Origin: Promethearchaeia archaeon
GTDB taxonomy: Archaea > Asgardarchaeota > Lokiarchaeia > Sigyniarchaeales > SOKP01
DNA: 64,000 nucleotides
Assembly (NCBI GenBank): GCA_029856125.1
Contig: JAHQWJ010000014.1
Location: 96,001-160,000 of the forward strand
Direction: 5' to 3'
The notes beneath the pieces are model-generated. The model searched no databases. It was not told where the DNA came from and saw only the letters and a list, made by a program, of their open reading frames with translations. This document shows positions 3,726 through 42,108 of this stretch, in pieces. The position numbers and the translations under genes were made by a program. Each line of letters begins with the position of its first letter. Positions within the stretch are counted from its first letter, which is position 1.

Positions 3726-4007
3726 CGTATAATCACTAAAAATTTATTTTCTATTATTTTTCTATTACTTTTTTTTTAAGTTTTTGATGCTTAATAAAAT
3801 TGTCAATTATCAGATGCATATAATCCTCTCTTCCCATCCTTAAAAAGATTCCATACCAATCAAGTATTAATTTTAAAATATATTTTAGCAATTAGATATA
3901 ATTAGACACAATTGTAAAACTTATATATCACTATTTCTTGTTATTAATTACTTCGAAATTCGAAATTAAATTTACTAATGGAATTAATAATGAGGTGAAT
4001 GTGAAAA

Positions 4008-4331
4008 CTGCCGTATCTTTTTACAACATCTTCTTACCCGACCGATTTAAGAGATGAAGTAGTCGAAGCTTATTTTAAAATGTTAAAAGAAATGCCTTTT
4101 GATAGATCTCTCGGAAAAGAAACAATACAGGTAGCAGTTACAACAAATCCTAAGGGAGTAAAGTCGCTAAGTATTGCGAATGTAAAAGAGGATAAACTTA
4201 CGGAAGCCATATTATGGACTTATAGAAGGATGACCTATTTTCAGCTTATCAAGGGATTTGAGTATAAAATTCGAGTGTGGACTAGTATAGTAGAAGCCTT
4301 AGAAAGCATCAATCGAAAGTTACCAGAGTAA
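4008..4331 (+). CDS. Small conserved hypothetical protein, probably starting at CTG 4008 rather than ATG 4080
   Basis: Frame open from 4005 after TGA 4002; GAGGTGA at 3992-3998; extended N-terminus (L/M)PYLFTTSSYPTDLRDEVVEAYFKM reads as ordinary coding sequence. Confidence 0.6.
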   Translation: MPYLFTTSSYPTDLRDEVVEAYFKMLKEMPFDRSLGKETIQVAVTTNPKGVKSLSIANVKEDKLTEAILWTYRRMTYFQLIKGFEYKIRVWTSIVEALESINRKLPE

Positions 4332-4379
4332 TAAAATAATTTTTTTTTCTTTTTATTCTATTTTAATAAAATTTGTGTT

Positions 4380-4904
4380 TTACTTCAAATTTAATTCCTT
4401 ATTGAAGACTTCATAGTCAGAGTTGGTATATAAACAAAAAATAACTTCCTTTATTTGAGATTCTCTAGCTAAGTATTTTTTTGCTGTGAAGATCATTATC
4501 TTTGCACATCTGTCGATGGGATATCCAAAAATTCCCGTTGATATCGCTGGAAACGCAATGGTCTTCAGTTCGTGTTCGTCCATCAATCTGAGGCTATTTA
4601 AAACAGCGTTGGTTAGTTTAGAATCTTCATCGCCTTCACCCATACGAGGTCCAACAGCATGAATAACATGTTTAGCTTTTAAATTCCCTCCTGTTGTAAT
4701 AGCAGCACCGCCAACGAAAGTCCCTCCAATTTCATTGCATTCTTCTTGAATTTTTGGACCTCCTTTTCGTCTAATCGCACCCGCTACTCCTCCACCGAGG
4801 ATTAATTGAACATTCGCGGCGTTGACTATAACATCGGTGTCTAAGTCTGTTATATCTCCTTGGACTATTTTGATTAAACAATTTTTAACAGATATAGTAT
4901 CCAT
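4380..4904 (-). CDS. Macro domain protein (O-acetyl-ADP-ribose deacetylase / ADP-ribosylhydrolase, YmdB-like)
   Basis: GDIT, IVNAAN, GGGVAGAI, VIHAVGP, AFPAISTGIFGYP. Confidence 0.93.
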   Translation of the reverse strand: MDTISVKNCLIKIVQGDITDLDTDVIVNAANVQLILGGGVAGAIRRKGGPKIQEECNEIGGTFVGGAAITTGGNLKAKHVIHAVGPRMGEGDEDSKLTNAVLNSLRLMDEHELKTIAFPAISTGIFGYPIDRCAKIMIFTAKKYLARESQIKEVIFCLYTNSDYEVFNKELNLK

Positions 4905-4962
4905 TTTATTCGATATGTATTATTTAATTCCGAAAATAAAATATAATAATAAAAAAAGAAAA

Positions 4963-5703
4963 TTATTCTGGTTGAGGTTCTTGCCCTTTCTTTAAAATCT
5001 CGTCAAGTTGAGAGCGATCTTCATCGCTCATTTTCGACATCGCTTCCATGTTTTGCTTCATTAGATCCATCATTACTTTCTGAGAAATTAATTGAGTTAA
5101 AACAGGTAAGGCAATTCTCATGCGAGTTAGTTCGTAAAACATTTGTTTTGCTGTATTTCTCATGTCCTTTAAGTCTTCTTTAGTCATCCCTTCTTCGCCT
5201 ACTCCCGGGCAATCTACGTCGACAACAGTGTAATTTTTTCCATCAAATTCTAATGGATAAGTTCTGCAACTCAGAGGGCGGTTATCATATACTAGACATT
5301 CTTTGTTCTCTTTGTTATAGAGGGGACACTTGACATCTAGTAGCTCTTCAATTGGTATTCCACCAAATGGATCCCGTGGTTTTTCTTCGTCACCTTCTTT
5401 TGGAGGCGGTGGTAAGGGTTTTAAGATCAAATCAATTCCTCCATTTGGTTTATTATATACATCTAAATATGGTAAAAAATTAGCAACTACACCATTTTTG
5501 GCCCATAATTCAAGATCCCAAAAGGTTATAGGTATTGGTCCACGAGATAGACAACATTTATCGGTTCGAGTACACCTAAATGTAAATTTTGCTTTTGGTT
5601 CTTCAGCATCGGTCTTGATCTCAACTTCCTCTTGTTCTTCCTCTTTTTTCTGGTCTTCTTCTTTTACTTCCGGTTTTTCATCATTTTTATTATTTTCAAC
5701 CAT
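4963..5703 (-). CDS. YkgJ family cysteine-cluster protein
   Basis: FxCxxxxxCC ... CPLY ... CLVYDNRPLSCRTYP ... CPG. Confidence 0.85.
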   Translation of the reverse strand: MVENNKNDEKPEVKEEDQKKEEEQEEVEIKTDAEEPKAKFTFRCTRTDKCCLSRGPIPITFWDLELWAKNGVVANFLPYLDVYNKPNGGIDLILKPLPPPPKEGDEEKPRDPFGGIPIEELLDVKCPLYNKENKECLVYDNRPLSCRTYPLEFDGKNYTVVDVDCPGVGEEGMTKEDLKDMRNTAKQMFYELTRMRIALPVLTQLISQKVMMDLMKQNMEAMSKMSDEDRSQLDEILKKGQEPQPE

Positions 5704-5847
5704 AATTCAACACTAACAAAAGTTTGATAAATTAATTGCTTTTCGATCTAAAGAATTAACCATTGAAAAAAAATTTTCTTTTTTGTTTCATTTAATGGTT
5801 CAATAAAAATATATTAAAGAATCGTTTTCCTACTTATCTTAATATAA

Positions 5848-6063
5848 TCCTCTATTTTTTACCTTTACAAAGGAAACCCTGTAAAATATAGTAAAGGGAT
5901 GCTACCTCAAACTGACAATCTCCTTGAGAGAGCAATTAATATTAGTGTTGGGGTGTCTGATGCAGGATTAGGCTCAGCATTTGGTGTTAGAATCAATAGT
6001 TCTAAAGAAGAAATTGAAACTACCGAACAAACTCTCTTAAAATTGATTCGGGAATGTATTTAA
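5848..6063 (+). pseudogene. Remnant C-terminal fragment, resembling a DegT/DnrJ/EryC1/StrS PLP-dependent aminotransferase
   Basis: Open frame ...YKGNPVKYSKGMLPQTDNLLERAINISVGVSDAGLGSAFGVRINSSKEEIE...* preceded by stop at 5845; resembles the family's C-terminal end with no upstream body. Confidence 0.5.
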
Positions 6064-6230
6064 TTATAAAAAATTCAATCTCCTTTTCAATTCATTCTAA
6101 TTACCTATTTAAAGGAAGTCTGAAATGAAATAAACAAATAATTATAAATATCATTAATTTTTACATTTTTTATTACGTATACTATGAACTTATTCTAGAT
6201 TCAAATTATCAGTATTAGGACAATATTACT

Positions 6231-7292
6231 ATGAAAACCTTGATCACCAATAAATATCTAATGTGGCTGATTTTATCCATTTTACTTATTATTAGCTTTT
6301 TTCTTGTCATGTTTTTATTTATTTCGACTTTAGAAGTGACCATCATTATCCTTGTAGCGTTGATTGTCTTTTTTTGCATTCAAGTTCTTCTACTTTTAAA
6401 TTTTGTTGGCAATAGATTAGAAAATCGATTGAAGATTGGAATGCTCATTACGCACTCCTTGAATTTATTATTTGCTATTGTTATTGGTTTTTCTATTACG
6501 GTAATGGAATCTGATTTCAAAAATAATTTTGGGATAGTTATGATTCCTTTACTTCTACTGTTTAGTCTCGTTATAACTGATAAATATGATAGAGATACAA
6601 AGGATCTTAACAATGTGCAAGAGGAGAAGTCAATAGAAAAATCAACCAGACCAGTTATAGAATTTGAAAACAAAAAGTACGTCTTTTCTTTGAATTCTTT
6701 AATATTATTAGGAGTTGGCACGCCTCTTTTAGCAGTAGCTATTTATTTTTTCTTTGATGTTGAAGCTCAATTTTGGCTCCATGAGGTCGTTGTGAAACAA
6801 ACGGTATATTTCCTTAATTTATTTTTTGATATGGATGTATCTACGAGCTACGTACCAAGTGGAAAATATCATTGGAGTTTTAATTTTGTTGGGAATATTG
6901 ATGGAGCCCCGTTGGGTAGTATATTTTTTGAGACTTTTTGTACAGGCATTCAAGCGATTTGTGTATTCGCAGGTATAATCATATGCACTCCTCACTCCCA
7001 AGATAAACAAACCAACAAAGACATAATTTGGAGAAAAACTAAAGCACTAATTGTATCATCAATTATTTTCTATGTAGTTAATGTCATTCGAATGTTGATT
7101 CAAATTGAACTATATTATCTTGGATACCCTTGGGATAGCATCCACGTTTCGATCAGCGCAGCAAGTTCTTTCATAGCAGCTATTATTATTCTCCTGCTTC
7201 ATAAATGGATACCCGAATTCATTATTAGCATCATATATACAGGCACTTTAATTAGCAAAAAACTTAAACACGTGAGAAAGCCCAAAGAATAG
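6231..7292 (+). CDS. Archaeosortase/exosortase family protein with extra N-terminal 4-TM module
   Basis: Catalytic-type Cys (FETFCTGIQ), Arg (NVIRM), His (WDSIH); multi-TM. Confidence 0.85.
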   Translation: MKTLITNKYLMWLILSILLIISFFLVMFLFISTLEVTIIILVALIVFFCIQVLLLLNFVGNRLENRLKIGMLITHSLNLLFAIVIGFSITVMESDFKNNFGIVMIPLLLLFSLVITDKYDRDTKDLNNVQEEKSIEKSTRPVIEFENKKYVFSLNSLILLGVGTPLLAVAIYFFFDVEAQFWLHEVVVKQTVYFLNLFFDMDVSTSYVPSGKYHWSFNFVGNIDGAPLGSIFFETFCTGIQAICVFAGIIICTPHSQDKQTNKDIIWRKTKALIVSSIIFYVVNVIRMLIQIELYYLGYPWDSIHVSISAASSFIAAIIILLLHKWIPEFIISIIYTGTLISKKLKHVRKPKE

Positions 7293-7355
7293 TAATAAAA
7301 TTTTTAAACATACCAATTGTTCAATTCTTAAATAACTAAAAAGTTAGAGATCATT

Positions 7356-8258
7356 ATGCTTAATTTTGAGAAAGAACAAACAGTAGCCAAAATCGATAAT
7401 GTATCCGTCGGAGGTCAACCCGGTGAGAATCCAGTTGTAATGGTTGCCACCGTTTTTTACACTAACCACGCCGCCTTACTCGATGAGAAAACCGGAAAAA
7501 TAGATAAAAAACTCGTCGAACAAGAATTAAACGAATACTCAGAAATTGTTGAAGAAACTGGAATGCAAGGAATAATAGACGTGGTTGGAGGGTATCCCGA
7601 GGCATTGCTAAAAGAGTGCGAATTTATTGCTGACATTGTAGATTATCCGTTTTTAGTTGATGGGTTAAACGATAGTTCCCGAATTCCCGCAATGGAGGGT
7701 TTAAAAGACATAGGATTGTTGGATAGAGCCATCCTAAACAGTATTGATGAGGCCACCAGCGAAGAAAGTTTAATAAAGTTAAAAGAAATTGGTGTGAAAC
7801 ATGCCGTGTTGTTAACTTTCGGAAATAGGTATATTTTTCCTCAGAAAAAAATCGATTTTTTAAAAAATACATTAATTAAAAAAGCTCAAAGCGCTAATAT
7901 AGAAAATTTACTAGTTGACACTGCAGTTTTAGATTTACCATCAATTGGAATAAATGTTGAGACAACAAGGTTAGTAAAATCAGAGCTGGGGTTACCCACC
8001 GGATTCGCACCTGCCAACGCAATTTATGGTTGGAATTTTGTTAAAAAATACGGTGACAAAGCGAGATGTGGTGGCATTGCTTCTTTGATGGCTTACTGTG
8101 TCAATGCAGGGAGTGATTTTGTGTTATTTGGCCCAGTTAAATTTGCAAAATGTATTATTCCCTCGATATCCCTGATTTCTGGTATTAATTCTTATTATCG
8201 AAAGCGGGTTTTAAGAAAAGAAATATCCGACCGGACTCCGTTAAAGCACATCTTTTAA
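7356..8258 (+). CDS. mtrH: Tetrahydromethanopterin S-methyltransferase subunit H family methyltransferase
   Basis: FEKEQ...GGQPGENPVV, PFLVDG, LNSI, LVDTAVLD, GLPTGFAPANA, GSDFVLFGP. Confidence 0.88.
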   Translation: MLNFEKEQTVAKIDNVSVGGQPGENPVVMVATVFYTNHAALLDEKTGKIDKKLVEQELNEYSEIVEETGMQGIIDVVGGYPEALLKECEFIADIVDYPFLVDGLNDSSRIPAMEGLKDIGLLDRAILNSIDEATSEESLIKLKEIGVKHAVLLTFGNRYIFPQKKIDFLKNTLIKKAQSANIENLLVDTAVLDLPSIGINVETTRLVKSELGLPTGFAPANAIYGWNFVKKYGDKARCGGIASLMAYCVNAGSDFVLFGPVKFAKCIIPSISLISGINSYYRKRVLRKEISDRTPLKHIF

Positions 8259-8276
8259 AGTATTTCTTCTAAGATA

Positions 8277-9794
8277 TTAAGAAATGTACCTTAATAATAA
8301 ATCTTGCGTGCGATTAAGAAAATCTTGGAGATTTTGGTTTATGATATCTTTTTTACTCTCGTCACCAATTAAAAAGAGGATATATAACTCATAATTTACG
8401 ATTTCTACTCGCTTTAACAAGATTACAGAGTCTGAAACTCTAAAGATTGCTTCTTCTTTCGCAGATGTTTTAAATTTGTAAAAAATCTTGAATAATGTAG
8501 TAAATTGAGGGGCAACGACCTCAAATACATTTAGTAATTCTTCAGATTTTTCCATTTGAGTAATTTTCATTGCTTCGGGGGTGAAGTGCTCTGCTAATAC
8601 TAAACCGTCGCTACTCAGAAGAAGTATTAATGATGAGCTTGTGAGCGACGAAAACTCGCTAAGATTTTGCTCAATCAGATTTCTATTCGGGCTCAATTTT
8701 GCAATACCAGATGAAAAAGCTCTCAAAATTGAAAAGATTTTGAACATACTCGTTACATAAATTTCAGGTTTTATGTTAGAAGATAAATTTATTAATTTTT
8801 TCTTAAGGTTTTTAATATTAGATTGGATTTTAACAGAGTCGATAATGTCGGGATCTCCTTTCGAAAATATATAAATTATTGGCGTTTTCTGTTCCAAATC
8901 CTGCAAGGCCTTTCTAATATTCTTAAGATATTCAATACTTTCGCTGAACCTCTCTTCATCTCTTATATCGATAAAATAAAAGAGCAAATCCGCTTCAAAT
9001 AGATAAATTTGGGCTTTATTAAGGTTAAGGTATCTTTCATGATATTTTTTTTGTCCACCTAAGTCCCACAAAAAGATGGTTGTTCCGAGAGCTTCTATCG
9101 AGCTTACAACTGCTCCCAATGTGGGTTTTAATCCTATTAATTTAGAGAATTTTCTATCAACAGATAATATAAAACTTGTTTTTCCACTATTATCAAGACC
9201 TGAAAGAATAATTTTCATTTTTCTTTGTGTTGTTATTGGTGTTGAGGGAGTTTGTTCGATGTTAATAATTTTTTGTAAGAGTTTTTTAAAATCTCTAACA
9301 ACCTGTTCTTGAGGTAATAGCTCATCAGTAATCTTTTTATCAAATTCAGAAAAAAAATCTGTAATTATATTTTTTAACCTGTTTATGTTATTGTATAAAA
9401 AGCTCCTTTTTTTTTCATCAATTAATATACAAAAGGCACTTGCCAATGGTATTTCTGAAAATTTAGCGTCAATAAAATGAAAATAACTAAGAGAAGTTAA
9501 ATGGAAATCTGGAAATGGCATGATTCCAAAATGTTGGTACTTCATCAATACTTCATGCTCTTGTTTAAATATATTTCCATTCCCTAATAGTAAAGTGATG
9601 TTTTTAATCGCAATCTGAGTGTAATCTCTTGAAGTAATTCCAAGTTTACTTTCCTCTCCTTTTTCTGAATTTGCTTTTTTCAGTTGGTCCTCATCAATAG
9701 GATCTGGAAACATATAAATAGGTTGAGGACCGAATTTATCGAAGGCAGAGAATAATAAACCTTTGATTACAGACGATTCAATTAATTTATCCAT
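8277..9794 (-). CDS. uDENN/longin-like + Arf/Rag-like small GTPase + roadblock-like fusion protein
   Basis: N-term FSAFDKFGPQP/IMPFP; G1 GLDNSGKT, G2 PTLG, G3 WDLGGQ, G4 SKGD, G5 TSM; C-term LILLLSSDGLVLA roadblock-like. Confidence 0.85.
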   Translation of the reverse strand: MDKLIESSVIKGLLFSAFDKFGPQPIYMFPDPIDEDQLKKANSEKGEESKLGITSRDYTQIAIKNITLLLGNGNIFKQEHEVLMKYQHFGIMPFPDFHLTSLSYFHFIDAKFSEIPLASAFCILIDEKKRSFLYNNINRLKNIITDFFSEFDKKITDELLPQEQVVRDFKKLLQKIINIEQTPSTPITTQRKMKIILSGLDNSGKTSFILSVDRKFSKLIGLKPTLGAVVSSIEALGTTIFLWDLGGQKKYHERYLNLNKAQIYLFEADLLFYFIDIRDEERFSESIEYLKNIRKALQDLEQKTPIIYIFSKGDPDIIDSVKIQSNIKNLKKKLINLSSNIKPEIYVTSMFKIFSILRAFSSGIAKLSPNRNLIEQNLSEFSSLTSSSLILLLSSDGLVLAEHFTPEAMKITQMEKSEELLNVFEVVAPQFTTLFKIFYKFKTSAKEEAIFRVSDSVILLKRVEIVNYELYILFLIGDESKKDIINQNLQDFLNRTQDLLLRYIS

Positions 9795-9873
9795 TAGTCG
9801 GAGTTTCTTGTATTATTTTCTAATAATAAATGGTAGGAAATTTAATTATATATAGCTTTATTCTCTAATATTA

Positions 9874-10830
9874 ATGCTAGATGATATTGCTGAATATATT
9901 AAGTCTAATAAGAACATCATAGAAAAAGCCGATATTAGCCCTTTTGTTCAAAGTATTAACGAAAATTCTTATAAGAGCCCTCGCGTTTTTTCTGATATTG
10001 GCCAAGACTCTGCAGCTATAAAAAACAATAGTGATATGCTCACATTAATCACTACTGATAGAATAAAGACGAGTTATATAGAGAATTTCCCGTTAGGCGC
10101 CGGATTTAGTTCAATCTTGGTCGGTGTAGATGATGTTTATGCGTGTGGGGGAAAACCGTTAGCAGTAAGCATCATTATATCATTCAAAGATCAAATCGTT
10201 GGTCAAAAAATGATCGATGGTATTTGTAAAGGTTCGAAATTATTTCAGGTTCCAATAGTTCGGGGTCACACGAATATAAAAGAGTTCAACGAATTGAGTT
10301 CTACTGTTATAGGGGAGATTAAGAGAGACGAATATATTTCTGCGACTAATGCGCAAGATAAAGACGAGATTATCCTAGCTGTAGATTTCAGCGGAAAGGT
10401 TGGACGAGCAAGTAAGCTCCATTGGGATACGGTAACGCATAAAAGCTCCGAGGAAGTTTTGAATAAGAGGAAGGCTATGAATGAAATTGCTAAGCTTAAA
10501 ATCGTAAATTCCGCTAAGGATATTTCAAATGGAGGTATTTTCGGCACGATTTTACAGTTGATAAAATATTCCAAAGTTGGAGCAGATATAAATATCGAAA
10601 AAATCGTAATTCCTCCGATATTAATAGAAAAGAGTTATAATTTAGAAACATTTATTCAAATGTATTTAACAACTTCTTATATTTTAACCGCACCAGAAGA
10701 AACAAGTCAAGATGTAGTAAAGATTTTCAACGATCATAACATGTCTGCTACTATAATTGGAAGGATAAGGAGCGAACAAGAATTAAATATTAATGACGGT
10801 AAGAATTCAATTAGAGTTTTAAAATTTTAA
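9874..10830 (+). CDS. AIR synthase-related (PurM-like superfamily) protein
   Basis: GQDSAAI, DDVYACGGKP, VPIVRGHT, SAKDISNGGIFG. Confidence 0.82.
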   Translation: MLDDIAEYIKSNKNIIEKADISPFVQSINENSYKSPRVFSDIGQDSAAIKNNSDMLTLITTDRIKTSYIENFPLGAGFSSILVGVDDVYACGGKPLAVSIIISFKDQIVGQKMIDGICKGSKLFQVPIVRGHTNIKEFNELSSTVIGEIKRDEYISATNAQDKDEIILAVDFSGKVGRASKLHWDTVTHKSSEEVLNKRKAMNEIAKLKIVNSAKDISNGGIFGTILQLIKYSKVGADINIEKIVIPPILIEKSYNLETFIQMYLTTSYILTAPEETSQDVVKIFNDHNMSATIIGRIRSEQELNINDGKNSIRVLKF

Positions 10831-10918
10831 TGTTCTAAGGTTTAATCTAATCGATAAGAAGTAAGCTATGAGAAACACTATATATTCCACATCAAACGAT
10901 AATTCTCGCTTTTAGCCT

Positions 10919-11137
10919 CTATTTAAGATCTAAAAATGTAAAAACCTGTTTCGGAGTAATGGTACTACAATTAGGACATAGATAAACTGGTTTTCTGTTT
11001 TTGGGAGTGTGAAGGACTTTTTCCATGATTTGGCCACAAGCTGGGCAGTATATTGAAATATCCTTTCGATGGGGGGTTATAAAAAAATGTGGTTTTAATT
11101 TATGTATTATTTCCATATAATAATAGTATGATTTCAT
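10919..11137 (-). CDS. Small zinc-ribbon protein
   Basis: CPAC...CPNC. Confidence 0.65.
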   Translation of the reverse strand: MKSYYYYMEIIHKLKPHFFITPHRKDISIYCPACGQIMEKVLHTPKNRKPVYLCPNCSTITPKQVFTFLDLK

Positions 11138-11310
11138 TCATTTAAATCCTCGCTTTCGATCATTCGGTGATCAATCCAGAACATTTGAGGATCAATAAGT
11201 TAATTTTAAAAATTAATAATTAATCCTACTAATTTTTCGTTACTTTTCTTACTATTTTTAGAATTTAATGATGTCGAAAGTTATATATTTATCAAATACA
11301 CATTTTAGGT

Positions 11311-12045
11311 ATGATTTTACAAATTTTATCTCAAGAAAATATAATAATAGCATCGTTTACGTTGCTTTTCGTGATAATTTCCTTAACTGTTGGCGTTAAG
11401 ATTTCATTGAAGTATTTTTCTTTACGGGCAAAAGAATTAATTTTGGTTGGAATTGCTTGGATATGCCTTTCTTCCCCGTGGTGGTCCGCGCCATTTTCAT
11501 TTCTTACATATGCTTTTTTCGGTGTAGTATGGGAGATTCATGTTTTTTTTATTATCGGAAATATATTTATTCCAGTAGCATTGATAAGCTGGATATATGC
11601 ATTTGCAAAAATGGCGTATGATAAAGTGAAAACGAAATTACTGATAATTTATTCAATAATTTGTACTGCGTTCCTAATATTCTTTCTTATCTTTATGGTA
11701 ATTGATGTTAATTTGATTGGAGAATTTGATGGAACCTTCGACGCTAGATATGTATCTTTTACAAGGATTTTTCAAGCATTTGCTATTTTATCAGCTTTAC
11801 TTACGGGGGTTCTCTTTGCTCTAAAATCCTTTAAGTCAGACGATGCAACAATTCGATGGAAAGGAAGATTTCTATTAATCGCTTTCATCTCATTTTCAGC
11901 AGCAGCAATACTAGATTCTGGATTTGCATTAGGAATTATTGGTGTAATAATTATAAGGTTGTTATTAATATCAAGTGCGATTGAATATTATTTAGGTTTC
12001 TTATTACCAGATCGAATAGCTAAATGGTTAATTAGGAATGATTGA
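11311..12045 (+). CDS. 7-TM membrane protein of unknown function
   Basis: Seven hydrophobic segments; similar layout to 36989. Confidence 0.75.
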   Translation: MILQILSQENIIIASFTLLFVIISLTVGVKISLKYFSLRAKELILVGIAWICLSSPWWSAPFSFLTYAFFGVVWEIHVFFIIGNIFIPVALISWIYAFAKMAYDKVKTKLLIIYSIICTAFLIFFLIFMVIDVNLIGEFDGTFDARYVSFTRIFQAFAILSALLTGVLFALKSFKSDDATIRWKGRFLLIAFISFSAAAILDSGFALGIIGVIIIRLLLISSAIEYYLGFLLPDRIAKWLIRND

Positions 12046-12051
12046 TATCCT

Positions 12052-19316: not shown

Positions 19317-19468
19317 GGTTGTTAAATAAATTAAATTATGTTTTGTAACATAATAAAAATCTCTGTTTTTATTTGTTCTGGTATTTTTACTAAAGAATAA
19401 CATTAATTAAGACAGAATTTTATTATGTTAATAATTAAAATTTATGCTAATTCTAAGGGTAAGGGACT

Positions 19469-20110
19469 ATTATCTACAAGATTTTTCTTATTGATGGCGA
19501 TAATGGAATATCACTTCTAGAAGCTACGTTTAAAGAACTTAAGCATAAAAACAATGGTAATAATGTTATACCTGGGTTTTTTAATGAAATAAATGAAATT
19601 ATCGATAAAATTCAGGCTGCTATGGTTAAGGGTAAAAATGGGGATGATATGACTAGAATTGTCGAATCTGAAAATTCTACAATTATTATAGTTTACCATC
19701 CTCCCTCAAGAATTTTGTATTGTTCGATTTCTGATGCTGACGACGATATAGATAAATTAATTGCTGTAATGAACAAAATATCTAATAGATTCTATAAAAA
19801 ACACTCATCTGATATAAAATTATTTAGAACTACTTCTGAGAAATCGCGGTTTCAAACAATTATCGCAGATATAGAAAACATATGTCAAGGTGGAAAAGTA
19901 GCAGAAATTTTTCCAAAATTGCTTATTGGCGAGAATGTACTTCCTAAAATCGTCTCAATGGGGATGATTGACGAGGAGGAGCTTCGAGTTGCCTTGAAAT
20001 GTGCTGGAAAAGCCTCACCTTTAAGAATAGCAAGAGAGTTAGGTAAATCTCGGAACGAAGTAAATAACATTTTAAAAAAATTAGAACAGTTAGATATCGT
20101 TAATTTCTGA
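19469..20110 (+). CDS. Longin-like domain + C-terminal winged helix protein; probable ATT start
   Basis: Frame open from 19463; IIYKIFLIDGDNGISLLE...IPGFFNEI is a longin-type N-terminus missing from track ORF (19622); C-term SPLRIARELGKSRNEVNNILKKLEQLDIV wHTH. Confidence 0.72.
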   Translation: MIYKIFLIDGDNGISLLEATFKELKHKNNGNNVIPGFFNEINEIIDKIQAAMVKGKNGDDMTRIVESENSTIIIVYHPPSRILYCSISDADDDIDKLIAVMNKISNRFYKKHSSDIKLFRTTSEKSRFQTIIADIENICQGGKVAEIFPKLLIGENVLPKIVSMGMIDEEELRVALKCAGKASPLRIARELGKSRNEVNNILKKLEQLDIVNF

Positions 20111-33104: not shown

Positions 33105-33115
33105 AGGTAATAAAT

Positions 33116-33691: not shown

Positions 33692-33734
33692 AAATTAAAT
33701 AAGAGCTTCCATATCCCGCAATTATTTTTAATTT
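33620..33734 (+). repeat. 115-bp direct repeat copy 1 (nitroreductase 3' end + downstream sequence)
   Basis: Matches 34976-35090 ungapped with 2 mismatches. Confidence 0.95.
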
Positions 33735-33842
33735 AATTTGATTGAAAATCAGCTGATATCTCTTCTTTTATAGATAATGAACCCTATTAGTATAATATAT
33801 GAAAAAGTGAAAATTAATATCTCTCATTATTTTAAAAGAGTA

Positions 33843-34667
33843 TTATGAATTAATTTTTATTATTAAACTTCTTTTTTGTATAATCTGATGTAAATAAAAA
33901 CCATAGAGAATTAAAACTATTCCTATAAAATAAAAGAGTAAGGGAAAATAAGGAGTGTAGAAAATGTAATAATAGGTATAATTAATCATACTCATTATTG
34001 AAAAAAATGTTATTAATAAGATAAATAAACCCATCCAAATTGAAAAAACAGCCTTATTTTTTCTCTCTTGTGTCGTGTGTGTTATTTTTATCGAATATTT
34101 ACTAAATATTAATAAAACAATTCCAATTAGAAAAGGTAATAAAAAAAAAGGAAATACATGGAGCATAGTTTCAGGTCTAAATGAAACTATTGTCATGATG
34201 ATTGAAAATCCATATGTTAGTGAAATAATTAACCCTATTATGAACAATACAATCCCTAATATTTTTTTTTCTTTTTTTTTTTTTTCCTCATCTTTTAACT
34301 TTATTTTATGAAAAAACAACCTAATTCCGAGATAGATTAATCCTATACCTAAAAGAATTTCGCTAATATTAACAATGGTTAAAGAATCTATAATTATCAC
34401 TGTAATAGATAATATTATGATTAATATTCCTATTAAAAATATAATAAGAGCAATCTTTTTTTTTACTCTAGCGTTAACGGACATAACTAGAATACCAAAT
34501 AAAATCAAAATAACGCCGTACAACATTAAAATGATAAAAAATATCAACATAAAATACAAAATAGTTTTTGATAATAAATCTATTAATCGAACTACTACAA
34601 AAATTAATAAGAAAACCCCTCCAAGCAGAAAACAAAATCCATATCTCCGTCTTTCTATTTTTTCCAT
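33843..34667 (-). CDS. Very hydrophobic membrane protein built from four 2-TM repeat units
   Basis: Units start RRRYG/KKKIA/KKILG/KNKAV each followed by a TM pair; extremely AT-rich. Confidence 0.7.
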   Translation of the reverse strand: MEKIERRRYGFCFLLGGVFLLIFVVVRLIDLLSKTILYFMLIFFIILMLYGVILILFGILVMSVNARVKKKIALIIFLIGILIIILSITVIIIDSLTIVNISEILLGIGLIYLGIRLFFHKIKLKDEEKKKKEKKILGIVLFIIGLIISLTYGFSIIMTIVSFRPETMLHVFPFFLLPFLIGIVLLIFSKYSIKITHTTQERKNKAVFSIWMGLFILLITFFSIMSMINYTYYYIFYTPYFPLLFYFIGIVLILYGFYLHQIIQKRSLIIKINS

Positions 34668-34744
34668 CTAATTAACCTGTAAGATTTTCTTAAAAAAAAA
34701 AAGGTAATAAAATGTTTTAATGTTTTTGATTAGTTGTTATATTC

Positions 34745-34975
34745 TTATTTTACGATATAATTATGCCCTTCAATAATAAATGTAAATCCTGAAAAAACCT
34801 GATTAGGAGGCGACATAAATTCTATATCAATGAACTCAGAGGTACCGTTGTTGTGAATGGCTCCCAGTACGTCAACCCGGTTATCATCACTAAACTTTAA
34901 CTCGGGTAACACATTTCCTAGAGAAGAGTGAAACGCTGATTTAAGAGCTAAGGGTACTAATAATCCATTGGAGAG
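34745..34975 (-). pseudogene. Truncated 3' part of an unknown gene, cut at the repeat junction
   Basis: Open frame to stop 34745; the track ATG (35002) lies inside the antisense of duplicated nitroreductase DNA, so ORF is chimeric. Confidence 0.5.
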
Positions 34976-35090
34976 TGGAAAAATCCCGATGGTACTATGC
35001 ATGTACCAAAAAGAGACTTAGATGATATTATTTACAAAATCTTTTAAAAATTAAATTAGAGCTTCCATATCCCGCAATTATTTGTAATTT
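34976..35090 (+). repeat. 115-bp direct repeat copy 2
   Basis: Matches 33620-33734 with 2 mismatches (offset 1356). Confidence 0.95.
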
Positions 35091-35133
35091 TTATAAATCT
35101 CTAATCTTTTCCTTTTCTTTAAATTTTTTATTG

Positions 35134-35199
35134 GCGTATGCAAAAACATAAATTGGAAAGTCTTATTTTAAAGGTGGAATAAAAGAGAGAAATAATAAT
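35134..35199 (+). repeat. 66-bp imperfect direct repeat copy A (downstream of LRR gene)
   Basis: Ungapped match to 36016-36081, last 21 bp identical (ATAAAAGAGAGAAATAATAAT). Confidence 0.85.
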
Positions 35200-35206
35200 T
35201 TAGAAA

Positions 35207-35892
35207 TTAGTTCTTCTTGTTTTTTCGACAATAAGCAACGCATTTCTTAACATTTAAAGGGTGTTCATCAGTACCATAAATAGCGTTCTCGTCTATAACC
35301 TGCTCGAGGATCTCAGATGGATACTCTCTTCCTCGAATTCAAGTATCTCAAGCTTACCTAAATGCTCTAAGCCCTTTAACTCGGTGATTTGATTATTTAA
35401 TAAATCAAGTTCCCTCAGCTCCCCAAGATTATCTAATCCCGTAATCTCTTTTATTTCATTGGATTGTAGATCGAGATAGCGCAATTTTTTAAGATTCTCC
35501 AACCCTTTAATCTCTGAAATTTTGTTTTCAGACAAATCTAAGCAAGTAAGATTAGTTAGGTTTTCTAATCCTTTAATTTCGGTGATTTGATTGCGTTTGA
35601 GATCTAAATCGTAAAGGTTAACTAATTTCTCTAATCCTTTAATTTCAATGATTTGATTGTAGGATAACCTTAATACTTTCAGATTTGATAAGCTTTCAAG
35701 CCCATTGATTTCTGTTATTTCGTTAATCGATAAATCTAAAACTTCCAAGTTGTTCAAGCGTTCAAGATCCTCAATATCGCCAATATCTCTTATATCTCTA
35801 CTGCCTAAATCTAAAAGTCCCTTGGAATCTTTATAATATTCGACATAACAACGTTCTTTTCCAATTACAACGAAATCTTTGCGTTCTTGCAT
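35207..35892 (-). pseudogene. SDS22-like leucine-rich repeat protein with a frameshift near its 3' end (track ORF 35293-35892)
   Basis: LxxLDLSxNxIxEIxGLExL repeats; alternative frame after GAGAG run (35324-35329) continues YPSEILEQVIDENAIYGTDEHPLNVKKCVAYCRKNKKN*. Confidence 0.72.
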
Positions 35893-36015
35893 AGTTTATT
35901 CACCTACCGCTTAATTGGTTAATTATGTAATCGAAACAATCCTATTTAAATACAGAGCATCCACCGGATTATCATTGAATTACAATAAAATTTGGAAAAT
36001 TAAAAAAAAATTGAT

Positions 36016-36081
36016 GCATATCCCAAAATGTAAGTTGGAAGATATCATTTTAAGGGTGGTATAAAAGAGAGAAATAATAAT
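36016..36081 (+). repeat. 66-bp imperfect direct repeat copy B (upstream of LRR gene)
   Basis: Ungapped match to 35134-35199 (offset 882). Confidence 0.85.
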
Positions 36082-36158
36082 GAAATTTGCCCTCCTCTTA
36101 CTCTCTCTTAATTAAATTACTTGAATAACAACTGTTTAAAGCGTTAAATACCCCACCC

Positions 36159-36182
36159 ATAGATTTTTGTCATAAAATCTAT
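36159..36182. promoter_or_regulatory. Perfect inverted repeat ATAGATTTT-N6-AAAATCTAT, possible operator
   Basis: Intergenic between divergent LRR gene and 36454; AT-rich so chance is possible. Confidence 0.35.
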
Positions 36183-36453
36183 TAAAATAGATATTGTTTA
36201 TGAAAATATAAGCTTTGTTCCCCAGAATTGAGGAAAATTTTTCGGTGGGTTCCTAGATGTCCTCAATCACGGAGAAAAATTTAGTCATTCTCTAAATTTA
36301 CGGCTTGGTTCTCATTTTTTATCAAAAATTCTGCTAAAAGAGTCGGAATTGTTAATCATTTTAACATTAAATTTATATTCAATTAAGGTCATTTAATATT
36401 TACGCTAAGTAATTTTATATGAATAAATATTTACAATTTGTTGCAAGATAAAT

Positions 36454-36975
36454 ATGTCAAATCAAAAAAACGAAAAAAAAATGGTAACCTTGGTTAGTCC
36501 ACTGTCAATGAGAGAGTTTGAGGCTTTATTGATAATTTTAAAGAACGATGGGGAGGAGTTAGCAGTTTTAAAAGCAGCAATCGATGTAAAATTTAAACTT
36601 GGAAGTAGAACTAAAGGGTACGATTATATAAGAAATCTGCGTAATAAAAATTTTATCGAAACTCTAGAAAAAAAAATTTATGTGAAAGAGAATATAAGGA
36701 GTGAATACGAGAGATTAATCTTACCCACAGTGAAAAATCTAAATGAATCGATAAAAAAACTTTCAAAGGATTACATGAACGAGATCAAAGAAGAAGAAAT
36801 ACTTATGGAGAAATTTAGAACCTATACAGAAACCCTTCTTCAGGGTATCAATCATGTGTTGGAGGATACACCGACAAAAAATATAAATAAAACAAAACTT
36901 CAAGGAAAAATAAAAGATACGATCTGGCGCTACTTTCGCGCAAAAATGTTAGAAATCGAGATGTTTTCAAAATAA
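36454..36975 (+). CDS. Hypothetical protein, possible winged-helix DNA-binding N-terminus
   Basis: LSMREFEALLIIL...SRTKGYDYIRNLRNKNFIE pattern, then helical region. Confidence 0.55.
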   Translation: MSNQKNEKKMVTLVSPLSMREFEALLIILKNDGEELAVLKAAIDVKFKLGSRTKGYDYIRNLRNKNFIETLEKKIYVKENIRSEYERLILPTVKNLNESIKKLSKDYMNEIKEEEILMEKFRTYTETLLQGINHVLEDTPTKNINKTKLQGKIKDTIWRYFRAKMLEIEMFSK

Positions 36976-36988
36976 AGACGCTATAAGT

Positions 36989-37789
36989 TTGATAGGAAAT
37001 AAATATGGAAGGTATGGAATAAAGTCAAAACTTTTAAAAATTCATACACTTTTGAGTAACAATACGTTGCTATTTCAAAATGAACTTACTATAAGATTAA
37101 TTATTGTTTCGATTTTTCAAATATGGCCTATTTTTTACTGTTCTTATTTCGCTTATAGATTACTAAAAAGAGCAAAAAATCGTTCGACTTATATTTTGAG
37201 TGCTTATTTCGCAACAACCGCTCTCACTTATTTCCTTGCAACTATTTCAACATATTTATCAAATACGCCCATATCTTACCCTGTTTATGTGATTTCAATT
37301 TACTTCTTTGTTTTTAGTTTTAGTTTTTTAATTAATTTCAGCTGGTTACTTACTAATCTTGATGTAAAATCGCGCAATACTACTTTTTACTTAAGACTAT
37401 CTATTTATGGCATCTTATCATCATACATTATTATTATAGGTGTTTTGTTTAATGGTATAACATTAAATGAAAGCACTGGTTGGATACCTGTTTACAGTTG
37501 GTTCCTTCTTGGGTTTAGTTGGATTTATTTCTTGCTTTTTTTAATTATTCCTCAAATATATTTATCTTTAAAAATTCTGAAAGTATATGAGGGTATTGTT
37601 CTAAAGAGAAGATTAAATAGGTTTATAATCAGCGTGTTTTTAGGGTTGTTAGTGCTTGTTTTTTTATTCCTGTATAACACATGGACTGAAAATGAACTTT
37701 TCAGAACATTTTATATTTTTATAATACCAGAATTAGCAACAATTGCTGCTTATTTAATATTCAAAGGATTTGGGAAGAATTTAGAGTAA
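36989..37789 (+). CDS. 7-TM membrane protein of unknown function
   Basis: Seven hydrophobic segments; GITLNESTGWIPVYSW loop; true start may be downstream TTG ~37067. Confidence 0.72.
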   Translation: MIGNKYGRYGIKSKLLKIHTLLSNNTLLFQNELTIRLIIVSIFQIWPIFYCSYFAYRLLKRAKNRSTYILSAYFATTALTYFLATISTYLSNTPISYPVYVISIYFFVFSFSFLINFSWLLTNLDVKSRNTTFYLRLSIYGILSSYIIIIGVLFNGITLNESTGWIPVYSWFLLGFSWIYFLLFLIIPQIYLSLKILKVYEGIVLKRRLNRFIISVFLGLLVLVFLFLYNTWTENELFRTFYIFIIPELATIAAYLIFKGFGKNLE

Positions 37790-37818
37790 CTAAACACTAA
37801 ATACGATTTTTATATATC

Positions 37819-38550
37819 CTAACTTTTATAGGAATTGTACAGATGTTTTAATGCGATTTCTGTTGATTCTTTAGCTTCATCAATACTGACCATCCCTATT
37901 GTAGTGCAACAGATATTATGCCTAGAAATATACTCATAAGCTTTATAAGGATTCAATTTACCGGCTGCTAGTGTTTTCATTCCTATAAAGTGATGATTTT
38001 TATGGCTATCTACTATCTTCTCTAGCTCTATTTGATTCCCCATTAAATAACCCCGAGCGTTGAAGGGAATTAAAAATGTTTTTACAGAAGGAATATTTTC
38101 GAACGCGTATTCCAAGGTAGAAACGGGATTATGAGCCGCAATTCCAGGTATAATTCCCATTGACTCAATCTCATCAATAAGTTTTTCTAGTTTCTCATCC
38201 ACTTTATCCGCGACCATTCCGTGGGCAAAAATGATTTTTGCTCCAAGTTCAGCTAATTCCTTAATGAGAGGATCAGGTCCCGGAAAAGTAGAGCCCGTAA
38301 TGACAAATTCGTTATGAGTTTCAGCCATTATTTTAGCTGCTTCGGTGACCTTTCCTGCTAGGATTATTTCGATTCCACGACCCCCTACTTCATAAGACGC
38401 TTCCAATATCTCTAGCACAGCGTCCGTATTATTCAAAAATTTTCTTCGATATACTCGCGCATTCTTTCCAAATTGTGAGGCACCTAAGAATGGCGAGGTT
38501 CCTACCGACACAAGTGGAATTTCTTGACCTTCGATTTTATAAAATATGAT
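37819..38550 (-). CDS. Conserved archaeal TIM-barrel/aldo-keto-reductase-like protein; probable ATC/ATA start
   Basis: GTSPFLGASQFG, PGIAAHNP, LIPFNARGY, GMKTLAAG; in-frame upstream IIFYKIEGQEIPLV with AGGTG at 38560-38556 (track start GTG 38511). Confidence 0.72.
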   Translation of the reverse strand: MIFYKIEGQEIPLVSVGTSPFLGASQFGKNARVYRRKFLNNTDAVLEILEASYEVGGRGIEIILAGKVTEAAKIMAETHNEFVITGSTFPGPDPLIKELAELGAKIIFAHGMVADKVDEKLEKLIDEIESMGIIPGIAAHNPVSTLEYAFENIPSVKTFLIPFNARGYLMGNQIELEKIVDSHKNHHFIGMKTLAAGKLNPYKAYEYISRHNICCTTIGMVSIDEAKESTEIALKHLYNSYKS

Positions 38551-38683
38551 GTCTACACCTTTTTACTTTAGTTTTTAAAACAAAATTCGTCAAATAATAA
38601 AACTTTTATGAGATTTAATTAATAATTTCAGATAACTACTAACTATAAAATATAATTATAAAAATGATTCAATTTGATGAGAA

Positions 38684-40507
38684 ATGACAGACCCTAAAGC
38701 TATAGAAAACAATCCTTTTAAAGAGTTAGGTGAAATACCAGAAAAAAAATATGCTGATGGCTACACAGTTGATTCAACATATATTACAGTAAGAGATGGC
38801 GTTAAAATTGCTGTCACACTATGTTTCCCAAAAGGTCTCGCTTCAGATACTAAAATTCCGACTGTGTTAACGCAAACGAGATATTGGAGAGCAATGGAAT
38901 TACGAATTCCTTTTAGATGGATCCTTGATAGTATGGTACCAAATGCTCCAAATCCAGAGGTAGTTACTAGTAGAGGCTATGCCCTTATTTATACTGATGT
39001 CAGAGGAACTGGAGCATCAGACGGTACTCGAATAGTTCCATTTTCTGAAGAAGAGATCAAGGACGGTTCAGATGTAGTCGATTGGATAATATCTCAGCCT
39101 TGGTCAGATGGAAATGTTGTATCTAAAGGTATTTCTTATACGGGAATTACTGCACAGTTATTTCCTAAGAATAATCACCGTGCAATAAAAGCGGTTATAC
39201 CGGGTCATGCTTGCTGGGATCCTTATACAGAAATTGCATTTCCAGGTGGATGTTTTGAGTACGCATTTATGCAATTGTGGTCATTTTTAGGTAAGAATTT
39301 AGATTTAAATAATCCCAAAGTCTTTAGACAGATAAGACCCGAAGCTTGGCTGCTTGTGAAAGGCGTAGAACGAGTAAAAAGCGACAAAGACCTAAAATTA
39401 TTACAAATTGCTATAAATCAGCATAAATCAAATCAATATGTTTACGATCATACACTAAGTAGAGATTTTCGCGACGATAAGCTTCCCGATGGTACTGTTT
39501 TTGATGATATTAGCATATTTGCTCGGAAAGAAAAAATTGAAAAGTCAAACGTTCCAATTTTGGCCTGGTGTTCGTGGTTAGATTCTGGTTTCGGTGATGC
39601 TATTATTAAGCGATTCATGAATTTATCTAACCCCCAAATTGCTATTTTGGGCGATTGGAGTCACGGAGCAGTCTATCCTGCAAACCAATTTTTTCCAGAA
39701 CGGACTTTTGTAACTCCGACCCCTAAAGATAAGGTTAACGCTTGGATTAATTTCTTTGATAAATGCGTATATGGCGATGGAATACAAGGAAAAAAAATAT
39801 ATTATTATACCCTAGCGGAAGAAAAATGGAAGAAGTCCGAAGTATGGCCCCCCAAAGGGCACTTTTATCAAAAATGGTACTTTTCGGAAAATAATTCACT
39901 CATAAAAGAAGAACCTAAGGAAAATATTGGATCTGACGATTATAAAGTAAATTTCCGAGCTACAACTGGGCGGAATAATAGGTGGTGGGCGCTTTTAGGT
40001 TTACCTATAACGTACTACAACAGAAATAAAATCGATGAGAAATTGTTATGTTATACAAGCCAACCATTCGAATCTGATACAGAAATCACAGGACAAATAA
40101 TTGCATGTCTTTATTTATCCTCCACCCACGATGATGGTGCCATTTTCGCTTATTTTGAGGATGTTGATGAAAGTGGGAAGGTTACATATATAACTGATGG
40201 AGAATTCCGACCACTTCATAGAAAAATTCTAACAGACGAGCCACCGTATAAAATATTGACTCCATACCATAGCTATAAAGAAGAAGATTCTACACCTCTT
40301 ATTCCGGGAGAGATAATGGAGCTTAAGTTTGGGTTACATGTAACATCAGTTCTTATTAAAAAGGGACACAGAATTAAAATTGCCATTGCGGGAGCAGATA
40401 AGGATACATTTATACGTTATCCTAATGAGGGAAGACCAACAATTACTATATTTCGAAATAAGGAGTTTCCGTCTTATATTGAACTGCCAATTATAAAGAA
40501 GGAGTAA
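38684..40507 (+). CDS. CocE/NonD family hydrolase
   Basis: VRDGVKIA, QTRYWR, DVRGTGASDG, QPWSDG, GISY nucleophile, WSHG. Confidence 0.93.
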   Translation: MTDPKAIENNPFKELGEIPEKKYADGYTVDSTYITVRDGVKIAVTLCFPKGLASDTKIPTVLTQTRYWRAMELRIPFRWILDSMVPNAPNPEVVTSRGYALIYTDVRGTGASDGTRIVPFSEEEIKDGSDVVDWIISQPWSDGNVVSKGISYTGITAQLFPKNNHRAIKAVIPGHACWDPYTEIAFPGGCFEYAFMQLWSFLGKNLDLNNPKVFRQIRPEAWLLVKGVERVKSDKDLKLLQIAINQHKSNQYVYDHTLSRDFRDDKLPDGTVFDDISIFARKEKIEKSNVPILAWCSWLDSGFGDAIIKRFMNLSNPQIAILGDWSHGAVYPANQFFPERTFVTPTPKDKVNAWINFFDKCVYGDGIQGKKIYYYTLAEEKWKKSEVWPPKGHFYQKWYFSENNSLIKEEPKENIGSDDYKVNFRATTGRNNRWWALLGLPITYYNRNKIDEKLLCYTSQPFESDTEITGQIIACLYLSSTHDDGAIFAYFEDVDESGKVTYITDGEFRPLHRKILTDEPPYKILTPYHSYKEEDSTPLIPGEIMELKFGLHVTSVLIKKGHRIKIAIAGADKDTFIRYPNEGRPTITIFRNKEFPSYIELPIIKKE

Positions 40508-40523
40508 TTAACTCGTTAAATAG

Positions 40524-40895
40524 GTGATAAAAAAAATGGAAGAAATTTTACCACGGTTAAAAGGCATGTTAAAAGATGCGACTGTTATATCGTCTGATGC
40601 AACTAAATTCGAAATAACTATCACAATAGTTAAAAAAATTAACGGTAATGTGGCAGAGCCTGATGAAGTCATCGTAATGTTAAAAATGTACGGTGGATTA
40701 AGGGAAGATATCCCTATGGAAATAGATATCGATAACGATGCTCAGAATATTACGTTAAAACTCCAGAACGAAGAGGATTTCATAAAAGTTGCAAAAATAA
40801 TGGAAACATTATGGGATAACGCTGTAGATATGCTTACTTCAGCCTTGGAAGGCGATATAAGTCGTATTAAGGATATTCCGGAAATAGATGATTAA
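40524..40895 (+). CDS. Hypothetical protein
   Basis: 123-aa ORF; AGGTGA suggests start at the internal ATG (MEEIL). Confidence 0.6.
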   Translation: MIKKMEEILPRLKGMLKDATVISSDATKFEITITIVKKINGNVAEPDEVIVMLKMYGGLREDIPMEIDIDNDAQNITLKLQNEEDFIKVAKIMETLWDNAVDMLTSALEGDISRIKDIPEIDD

Positions 40896-40967
40896 ATAAT
40901 TTAAAAATATTTATTTTTATTCTTATTTTTCTTGTTCGAAAAGGTGATCTAATTAGCGGTATCTTTT

Positions 40968-41936
40968 CTAAATTGAATGTGTGGTTTTTAATGTAGAAAA
41001 AAAGTCTGTTAAATCGATATTTCCGCCGCTTATTACGATTCCAATCCTTTTGTTTTTAATTAAAGGTGATTCTATGTTACCGCTCAATATGCCTGCCAAA
41101 GGCACTGCTCCTGAAGGTTCTACCACTATTTTCATACGCTCCCAATAGAATTTCATAGCGTCAATTATCTGTTCCTCTTTAACTGTAATTATGTCATCTA
41201 CAAACTCCTTAATTATAGGAAATGTTTTTTCTCCTACTGAAGTTCGTAAACCGTCCGCAATTGTATTCGGATTTTCTACAGGTACCCTTTCTCCTAGTTG
41301 AAACGAGCGATAGGCGTCATCAGCATTCTTGGGTTCCACACCCACGACCTTGATGCTGGGGATTAACCCTTTTGCTGCAATTGAACACCCACTAATCAAT
41401 CCCCCCCCCCCAACAGGAACTAGTAGTAGATCAAGTTTTCTTACAGCACTAATGAATTCATATGCAGTTGTTCCAGCACCAAAAATTACGCGATAATCAT
41501 CGAAGGGGTGAACTAGTTTATACTCGTATTTTTGAACTAATTCCTCTGCCATTTTTGCTCGATCCCCAGGATTATTGCCGCATAATACAACTTCTGCTCC
41601 GTACTCTTTCGTTGCTTGAATCTTCGAAGGTGTAGCGTTGTTAGGCATAACTATAGTTGCTTTCGTATGTATAATCTTGGCAACTAATGCTACGGCTTGA
41701 GCAAAATTTCCTGAAGAATGGGTGATAATTCCGTTCTTTCTTTCAGTTGAGGATAGGCGGCTAATAACGTTCCAAGCACCCCTAAACTTAAAGGAACCCG
41801 TTCTTTGGAAGTTTTCACACTTAATTACTACTCTTTTAGCACTGATCATAGAATCCAAGGTCCTACTTGTCATAATAGGGGTTCTATTCGCTGCATAAGA
41901 GACTATTTTTGCCGCATTTTTTATGCCTTTAAAAAT
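40968..41936 (-). CDS. PLP-dependent threonine/serine dehydratase (serine racemase-like); probable ATT start
   Basis: KCENFQRTGSFKFRGA, SSGNFAQ, VPVGGGGLISG, TIADGL, EPSGA, SGGN; conserved upstream IKNAAKIV...RTP precedes track ATG 41873. Confidence 0.9.
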   Translation of the reverse strand: MFKGIKNAAKIVSYAANRTPIMTSRTLDSMISAKRVVIKCENFQRTGSFKFRGAWNVISRLSSTERKNGIITHSSGNFAQAVALVAKIIHTKATIVMPNNATPSKIQATKEYGAEVVLCGNNPGDRAKMAEELVQKYEYKLVHPFDDYRVIFGAGTTAYEFISAVRKLDLLLVPVGGGGLISGCSIAAKGLIPSIKVVGVEPKNADDAYRSFQLGERVPVENPNTIADGLRTSVGEKTFPIIKEFVDDIITVKEEQIIDAMKFYWERMKIVVEPSGAVPLAGILSGNIESPLIKNKRIGIVISGGNIDLTDFFSTLKTTHSI

Positions 41937-42108
41937 CGTTTTTCACCTTTTTAACTCCTTATGTATGAAAGTTAATCTTAATCATTGTTTTTATTTCTAT
42001 AATATTTTGTAGATACATTACTTAAAACGTGTGTAATCTTAAAAAAAATCTCATATTGATAAAGTTTGAGGGGAAAATTATAAATAATAGAGTAGCTAAT
42101 ACGATTAT

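Follow-up and report, generated by a model that had tools for sequence, protein, structure and literature searches.

We analyzed a window of 64,000 nt (positions 96,001 to 160,000 of contig JAHQWJ010000014.1, assembly GCA_029856125.1) from the metagenome-assembled genome (MAG) of a Promethearchaeia archaeon, an uncultivated Loki-type Asgard, in which four genes appear to lack an ATG, GTG or TTG start codon (canonical start). The source MAG, G000, comprises 3.69 Mb in 153 contigs at 32.7% GC and is rated 99% complete; the genomes compared with it are numbered likewise. The 3′ end of the G000 16S rRNA reads ...GGAUCACCUCCU, and the Shine-Dalgarno (SD) consensus is therefore AGGAGGUGAU. The four genes and their SD motifs, in window coordinates, are:

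41943 to 41948, minus strand: SD of gene 1, AGGTGA, complementary to the 16S 3′ end ...GGAUCACCUCCU
40968 to 41936, minus strand: gene 1, a pyridoxal phosphate (PLP)-dependent enzyme of the serine racemase / threo-3-hydroxyaspartate or threonine ammonia-lyase family; proposed start ATT 41936-41934
38556 to 38560, minus strand: SD of gene 2, AGGTG, overlapping an out-of-frame GTG-TAG start-stop at 38558-38553
37819 to 38550, minus strand: gene 2, a genus-restricted protein of ~243 aa; proposed start ATA 38547 or ATC 38550
19457 to 19465, plus strand: weak SD-like motif of gene 3, GGGTAAGGG, containing the in-frame stop TAA 19460-19462
19469 to 20110, plus strand: gene 3, a longin/roadblock-like N-terminal domain followed by a C-terminal winged helix-turn-helix (HTH); proposed start ATT 19469
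3992 to 3998, plus strand: SD of gene 4, GAGGTGA, stronger than the GAGATGA of 4 of 5 orthologs
4008 to 4331, plus strand: gene 4, a small protein of the 'MPY...' family; CTG 4008 where orthologs and paralogs have ATG

Re-reading both strands bore out the coordinates and sequences that the original prediction had given for all four sites. Each frame has a stop just upstream and is without a canonical codon for 13–51 codons past the proposed start. For gene 1, the in-frame stop TGA 41945-41943 is itself part of AGGTGA and is followed by AAAACG and ATT; the first canonical codon, ATG 41873, lies 21 codons past the ATT. For gene 2 the order is in-frame TAA 38565-38563, AGGTG 38560-38556, TAGAC, ATC 38550 and ATA 38547, with GTG 38511 as the first canonical codon. 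In gene 3, GGGTAAGGG is followed by ACT and ATT 19469, with no canonical codon before ATG 19622, 51 codons on. Gene 4 has an in-frame TGA at 4002-4004, then AAA and CTG 4008, with the first canonical codon (ATG 4080) 24 codons on. SD motifs stand at functional spacing in genes 1 (AGGTGA, 6 nt), 2 (AGGTG, 5 or 8 nt) and 4 (GAGGTGA, 9 nt). The ATT, ATA, ATC and CTG codons each differ from AUG at one position and occupy the start column of the orthologs. In DNA of 32% GC a frame stays open with a chance of ~0.92 per codon, so that open extensions of 17–25 codons are not rare by chance (P 0.14–0.26), and only the single extension of 53 codons is (P ~0.015). What sets the extensions beyond chance is their conservation in orthologs and the genome-wide SD test described below.

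Genes 1–3 have no canonical start at their conserved N-termini, and ATH codons (ATT, ATA or ATC; AUH in RNA) stand in the column where other orthologs have ATG, TTG or GTG. The start column of gene 1 is ATT in the orthologs of G007, G011, G013, G001, G015 and G006 and ATA in those of G004, G008 and G016, and G001 also retains the AGGTGA-6 nt-ATT arrangement. More distant members of the genus (G017, G009, G018 and G012) have ATG one codon upstream of this column and begin MSFQGIKNA. The Pfam PALP match begins at residue 15, and NCBIfam and PDB homologs align from residues 4–6 of the stop-to-stop frame, upstream of ATG 41873, so that a start at that ATG would cost ~20 folded residues.

The ATT of gene 3 is invariant in the 13 sequences of one clade (the ATT clade), including MAGs from independent studies (JAGXNS, SOKP, JAUVNS, DATKTW and JAHLWS). 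In all of them the first 35 codons or more (51–58 in most) are free of canonical codons, and all ATT-clade orthologs retain AAGGG or AAGGGG. The column is TTG in seven species of the same genus and ATG, GTG or TTG in other genera. Two of 10 Ile columns in gene 3 are also invariant, so that the invariance of the ATT is consistent with a start role, though only weakly so. The entire first half of the longin-like domain lies in the stretch before ATG 19622, and a profile search found HTH matches for the C-terminal part. One ATT-start ortholog, 87% identical, lies on a record labelled 'Candidatus Nanopelagicaceae bacterium' (DATKTW010000091.1, locus L105), which is probably mis-binned or mislabelled.

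Gene 2 matched no Pfam family. In the column of ATA 38547, its orthologs in G005 and G015 have an ATT immediately preceded by a stop, and in G011 the ATT lies at most one codon from a stop. The column is ATT in G013, G014, G016, G018 and G012, ATA in G004 (preceded there by GTT) and TTG in G017 and G009; G006 has ATG two codons upstream. The original prediction had favored ATC 38550 with ATA 38547 as the alternative. Because the ortholog columns align at the ATA, and the SD test also picks this codon, the sequence comparison supports ATA 38547 as the better candidate; ATC is possible. In G005, G015 and G011 for gene 2, and in G011 for gene 1, where TAA immediately precedes the ATT, the stop adjoins the start column or lies no more than one codon before it, so nothing upstream can open the frame.

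The extensions of genes 1–3 evolve as protein under purifying selection. Compared with orthologs, the ratio of nonsynonymous to synonymous difference (pN/pS) is 0.19–0.48 for gene 1, 0.09–0.19 for gene 2 and 0.08–0.28 over 50 codons for gene 3, at pS values of 0.36–1.0. These values bear on the possibility that translation begins at the first downstream ATG or GTG and that the in-frame stretch before it is an untranslated leader. Gene finders and public databases do call the downstream start, giving 162-aa products for gene 3. However, the stretch is under purifying selection with synonymous change near saturation, it contributes to the fold (alignments of gene 1 with serine racemases in the PDB begin at residues 4–6, and the gene 3 stretch is the first half of the longin-like domain), and orthologs with canonical starts begin exactly at the ATH column. 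Given the selection pattern and the fold, we regard an untranslated leader as highly improbable. The database entries instead bear out the predicted N-terminal mis-annotation: public gene 3 homologs of at least 80% identity are almost all 162–163 aa long (76% coverage), whereas those of 58–68% identity, from the TTG clade, are 211–216 aa (99–100% coverage).

Sequencing or assembly error could also remove a start, either through a miscalled ATG or through an indel in a run of five T residues (T5) that puts an upstream GTG or ATG out of frame. G000 has an out-of-frame GTG or ATG upstream of each site, with a T5 run intervening at sites 1, 3 and 4, such that loss of one T would fuse the upstream start to the open reading frame (ORF); the CTG at 4008, moreover, occurs in one genome only. 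Against this, ATT or ATA stands at the same column in 7–13 other species, whose assemblies are independent and come from different studies. Orthologs do not retain the upstream out-of-frame starts (G015 has no canonical codon near gene 1 in any frame, and G007 has TTG...TAA at gene 3), and the other ~60 genes of the window are intact, with no sign of homopolymer frameshifts. Since the independent assemblies agree, error can be discounted almost completely for the ATH sites. A T5 homopolymer frameshift was rejected for the further reason that neither the upstream start nor the T-run is conserved in orthologs.

Canonical initiation in another frame, for instance at the GTG within GGTGA, could reach these genes by a programmed frameshift or by termination and reinitiation at the overlapping AUH. 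Short upstream ORFs (uORFs) do overlap the AUH codons (GTG AAA AAC GAT TTT TAA at site 1, GTG TAG at site 2), and the uORF GTG AAA AAA GAG TAT TAA of the gene for the initiation factor aIF1, discussed below, is conserved in frame across the genus. But any GGTGA motif brings a GTG with it, and the uORFs are either missing from orthologs (gene 1 of G015 and G011; gene 3 of G007) or differ among them in length and position. No slippery site is conserved: the upstream out-of-frame starts and the T and A runs change among orthologs, and the A-run of aIF1 is interrupted in G013, G015 and G002. Reinitiation, for its part, would still make AUH the start codon. We consider a start in another frame improbable.

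Read-through of the bounding stop, or selenocysteine insertion at a bounding TGA, is not supported either. We found no protein-level conservation upstream of the bounding stop in the orthologs of sites 1–3, where the stop varies among TAA, TAG and TGA, nor do these sites resemble the genuine in-frame TGA genes of this genome. Such genes occur on contigs C112 and C124 of G000, where a TGA lies within conserved coding sequence of ORFs a1962, a1964, a2105 and a2106, and possibly a1889/a2094; these are probable selenocysteine genes. They include HdrA-like ORFs (...AAU-TPxTHEP), one of which has TGA in G000 and TGT (Cys) in G017.

How common are such starts? Within the window, we aligned the 5′ ends of 64 ORFs of at least 60 codons to the syntenic regions of G011, G004, G013, G017 and G009 (G007 was discarded as a comparator, being so close that non-coding DNA aligns too). 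Every other gene with an ortholog has ATG, TTG or GTG in the orthologs' start column, many without an SD, giving a rate of three ATH and one CTG in ~60 genes. Many window genes that start with ATG (for example 9856, 30747 and 43751) lack an SD and have a conserved A/T-rich TATA-like box ~25–35 nt upstream, which suggests that leaderless or very short-leader mRNAs exist beside the SD-led ATH genes.

Genome-wide, we searched the 5′ ends of 3163 non-overlapping G000 ORFs of at least 90 codons for 5-mer SD matches and scored the codons that follow in all three frames. An in-frame canonical start at spacing 3–10 occurred in 257 windows (ATG 199, TTG 39, GTG 19), and 98 windows had no canonical codon in any frame. 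Among these 98, ATH stood in frame at spacing 5–7 in 43 (ATT 25, ATA 12, ATC 6), and the two control frames gave 8 and 4 (Fisher p = 3e-14). Each of the 43 belongs to a different ORF, with a median distance of 21 codons to the next canonical codon, and sites 1 and 2 are recovered among them. ATH thus makes up ~13% of the strongly SD-led starts in G000. ACG, CTG, GTT and GTC occurred three times each, against 0–1 in the control frames. A simpler tally of codons behind any 5-mer SD was too noisy, as SD-like words within coding sequence are frame-biased, and the three-frame test of 5′ ends replaced it.

The same test gave ATH 6 versus 0 and 3 in 579 kb of G017, beside 33 canonical starts. In 1.06 Mb of G026, a member of another family, there was no ATH enrichment (6 versus 4 and 5; 75 canonical). 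For G024 only 290 kb were available, too little sequence for power, with two ATH and 12 canonical starts.

A second estimate came from orthologs. Of 295 G000–G017 pairs, 17 align for at least nine codons upstream of the first canonical G000 codon; these include four genes with an in-frame TGA (probable selenocysteine) and seven unambiguous ATH starts, with up to 11 possible. Among 232 G000–G026 pairs, a conserved extension of at least nine codons occurred in 13 on the G000 side versus five on the G026 side. Judged from these alignments, about 2–6% of conserved genes would begin at ATH (2.4–5.6%, from 7/295 and 13/232), a lower bound, since genes in which a canonical codon follows the ATH within a few codons are missed. 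Two variants of the comparison were set aside: an aligned-start matrix built by ungapped extrapolation was uninformative, as N-termini shift by a few codons, and a threshold of at least five codons overcounted because translated SD regions align, so we used curation by eye and at least nine codons. Together, the ortholog and SD tests support the earlier proposal that relaxed start selection is common in this lineage. The checks proposed with it came out in its favor at the three ATH sites, where the ortholog Met1 (ATG, TTG or GTG) maps to the ATT/ATA column and independent assemblies from different studies carry the ATT, and so did the genome-wide count of SD-led ATH starts, with its strong in-frame enrichment (43 versus 8 and 4).

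Gene 4 is a different case. The prediction had counted its CTG as a further instance of recurrent non-canonical starts, and this did not hold: all five orthologs, one of them 92% identical (G034; the others are in G018, G007, G047 and G038), read TGA AAA ATG CCA/CCT TAT. Among 24 'MPY' orthologs and paralogs the gene 4 start is ATG, a few having TTG or an ATG shifted by 1–2 codons. By this comparison CTG 4008 appears to be an A>C change limited to G000, an event separate from genes 1–3, and a base-call problem at this position is possible. Alternatively, gene 4 may have lost its start codon and be silent or decaying. The retention of ATG in all five orthologs and of ATG (few TTG) in the paralogs fits such a loss, which the six copies of the family in G000 would make tolerable. 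On the other side, the ORF is intact at 92% identity to the G034 ortholog, its SD is stronger than in relatives (GAGGTGA versus GAGATGA), and SDs genome-wide are followed in frame by slightly more CTG and ACG (three each) than the control frames contain (0). We hold a silent gene to be possible but doubtful. The likeliest reading of the sequence is that gene 4 is still weakly translated, starting at CUG with the aid of the strengthened SD, which in this single case fits compensation for a weak start.

The gene 4 family consists of genus-restricted 'MPY...' proteins of ~108 aa, without a Pfam or NCBIfam match, with up to nine copies in G007 and further G000 copies on contigs C140, C112 and C126. 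Minimal out-of-frame start-stop pairs lie between the SD and the near-cognate start in both gene 4 (ATG-TGA 3999-4004, plus strand) and gene 2 (GTG-TAG 38558-38553, minus strand).

The initiation machinery of the genus offers a candidate mechanism. The gene for aIF1 (SUI1), the factor that polices start-codon fidelity, itself lacks a canonical start: its first codon is ATT in G000 and, across 12 other genomes of the genus, at 13 more loci. Outside the genus the start is ATA in G024 and G028 (of another genus, g5), TTG in G019, G026 and G030, and ATG in G023, G021 and G029. The mRNA of the fidelity factor thus carries a weak start across the genus (ATT) and in G024 and G028 (ATA). All ATT-start copies of aIF1 read in the genus have a five-codon GTG uORF, ending in TAA, that overlaps the ATT, and G004 (L191) and G006 (L194) each carry, beside the ATT copy, a second aIF1 paralog whose start is an ordinary GTG. 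We found one initiator-type tRNA in G000 (A1:U72, three G:C pairs GGG/CCC in the anticodon stem, anticodon CAU). Rfam detected 28 tRNAs and Aragorn 17 despite the 99% completeness; several are 85–138 nt long and probably carry introns.

We propose that Met-tRNAi, the initiator tRNA with anticodon CAU, would pair with AUH despite mismatching its third base, that SD/anti-SD pairing would keep the AUH codon in the P site, and that the proofreading threshold of aIF1 in this genus may be low enough to pass it. A feedback like that of infC or eIF1, acting through the AUU start of aIF1 itself, could set this threshold. Such a feedback is plausible by analogy because AUU is rejected by Sulfolobus aIF1 in vitro, and weak starts mediate the autoregulation of both IF3 and eIF1 (PMC4705826).

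Instead of the ordinary initiator, a second, dedicated initiator tRNA or an elongator Ile-tRNA could read AUH, placing Ile, or Met from a special tRNA, at the N-terminus. The recovered tRNA set is incomplete, as the Rfam and Aragorn counts show, and this leaves space for such a tRNA. But only one of the tRNAs found has the initiator hallmarks, and its anticodon is CAU; no second initiator-type tRNA was found among the 28 detected. Near-cognate initiation elsewhere uses Met-tRNAi. We therefore give a dedicated tRNA very little weight.

We conclude, with a probability of roughly 0.8, that genes 1–3 are intact and begin at AUH codons (AUU 41936; AUA 38547 or AUC 38550; AUU 19469) on which the SD would place Met-tRNAi under a permissive aIF1, and that gene 4 is a separate case. 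The ATH codons of genes 1–3 are kept in 7–13 sister species from independent metagenomes. Several points weigh against this conclusion. AUH initiation is here a prediction from sequence comparison. The SD of gene 3 is weak, with a plain anti-SD match of only 3–4 nt (AAGGG), and a TATA-like box ~35 nt upstream would allow a very short leader. GGTGA-type SDs contain GTG and so create tiny out-of-frame uORFs, which may play a role. Compared directly, G000 and G026 do not differ significantly in their ATH versus canonical windows (p = 0.13). In genes 1 and 3, orthologs with canonical starts mostly lack an SD and those with ATH have one (mean longest match 2.8 versus 4.1 nt), but this association is confounded by phylogeny and is suggestive at most. 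With only 28 tRNA genes detected in the MAG, there is room for a second, unusual initiator. The feedback through aIF1, finally, is something we infer.

Extending the conclusion to the genus, and probably to at least one further genus, is more speculative: perhaps start-codon stringency has been lowered there, making AUH a regular class of SD-led starts under a threshold set by aIF1, whose own mRNA starts with AUU or AUA. Were this so, frequent near-cognate initiation would have its first archaeal example here, and autoregulation by a fidelity factor its third independent invention (after IF3 and eIF1), in the closest archaeal relatives of eukaryotes. The link to an AUU-start aIF1 would make the evolution of start-codon fidelity toward eukaryotes directly testable. 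There is also a practical consequence. Standard gene callers, which accept only ATG, GTG and TTG, would shorten a few percent of the lineage's proteins by up to 50–110 residues. Miscalled starts remove whole domains and distort Asgard domain inventories and analyses of 'eukaryotic signature proteins'.

Other archaea have the same machinery, comprising aIF1, aIF1A, aIF2, an initiator tRNA with A1:U72, and both SD-led and leaderless mRNAs, and reviews of archaeal initiation give only AUG, GUG and UUG as starts (PMC7531240, PMC4705826). We found no report in the literature of frequent AUH starts in any archaeon. The closest parallels are E. coli infC, which encodes the autoregulated IF3, and pcnB. 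As proposed here, an SD-led AUU is used there by the normal initiator tRNA under the control of a fidelity factor, and in both E. coli (infC) and this genus (aIF1) the gene of that factor itself starts with AUU. In bacteria, however, AUU starts are limited to a handful of genes, compared with ~2–6% of conserved genes and ~13% of strongly SD-led starts here, and the factor here is aIF1, which is unrelated to bacterial IF3 and for which the feedback is proposed by analogy. In animal mitochondria (NCBI tables 2 and 5) AUH is likewise a regular and frequent class of starts, but AUA encodes Met there, a single modified tRNA-Met serves, and there is no SD, whereas the elongation code here is standard and an SD is usually present. 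Eukaryotes scan, and favor CUG, ACG and GUG in a Kozak context, unlike the SD-positioned starts described here, among which AUH dominates. Yet aIF1 is the homolog of eIF1, and a weak start on its own mRNA follows the logic of eIF1 homeostasis (PMC4705826).

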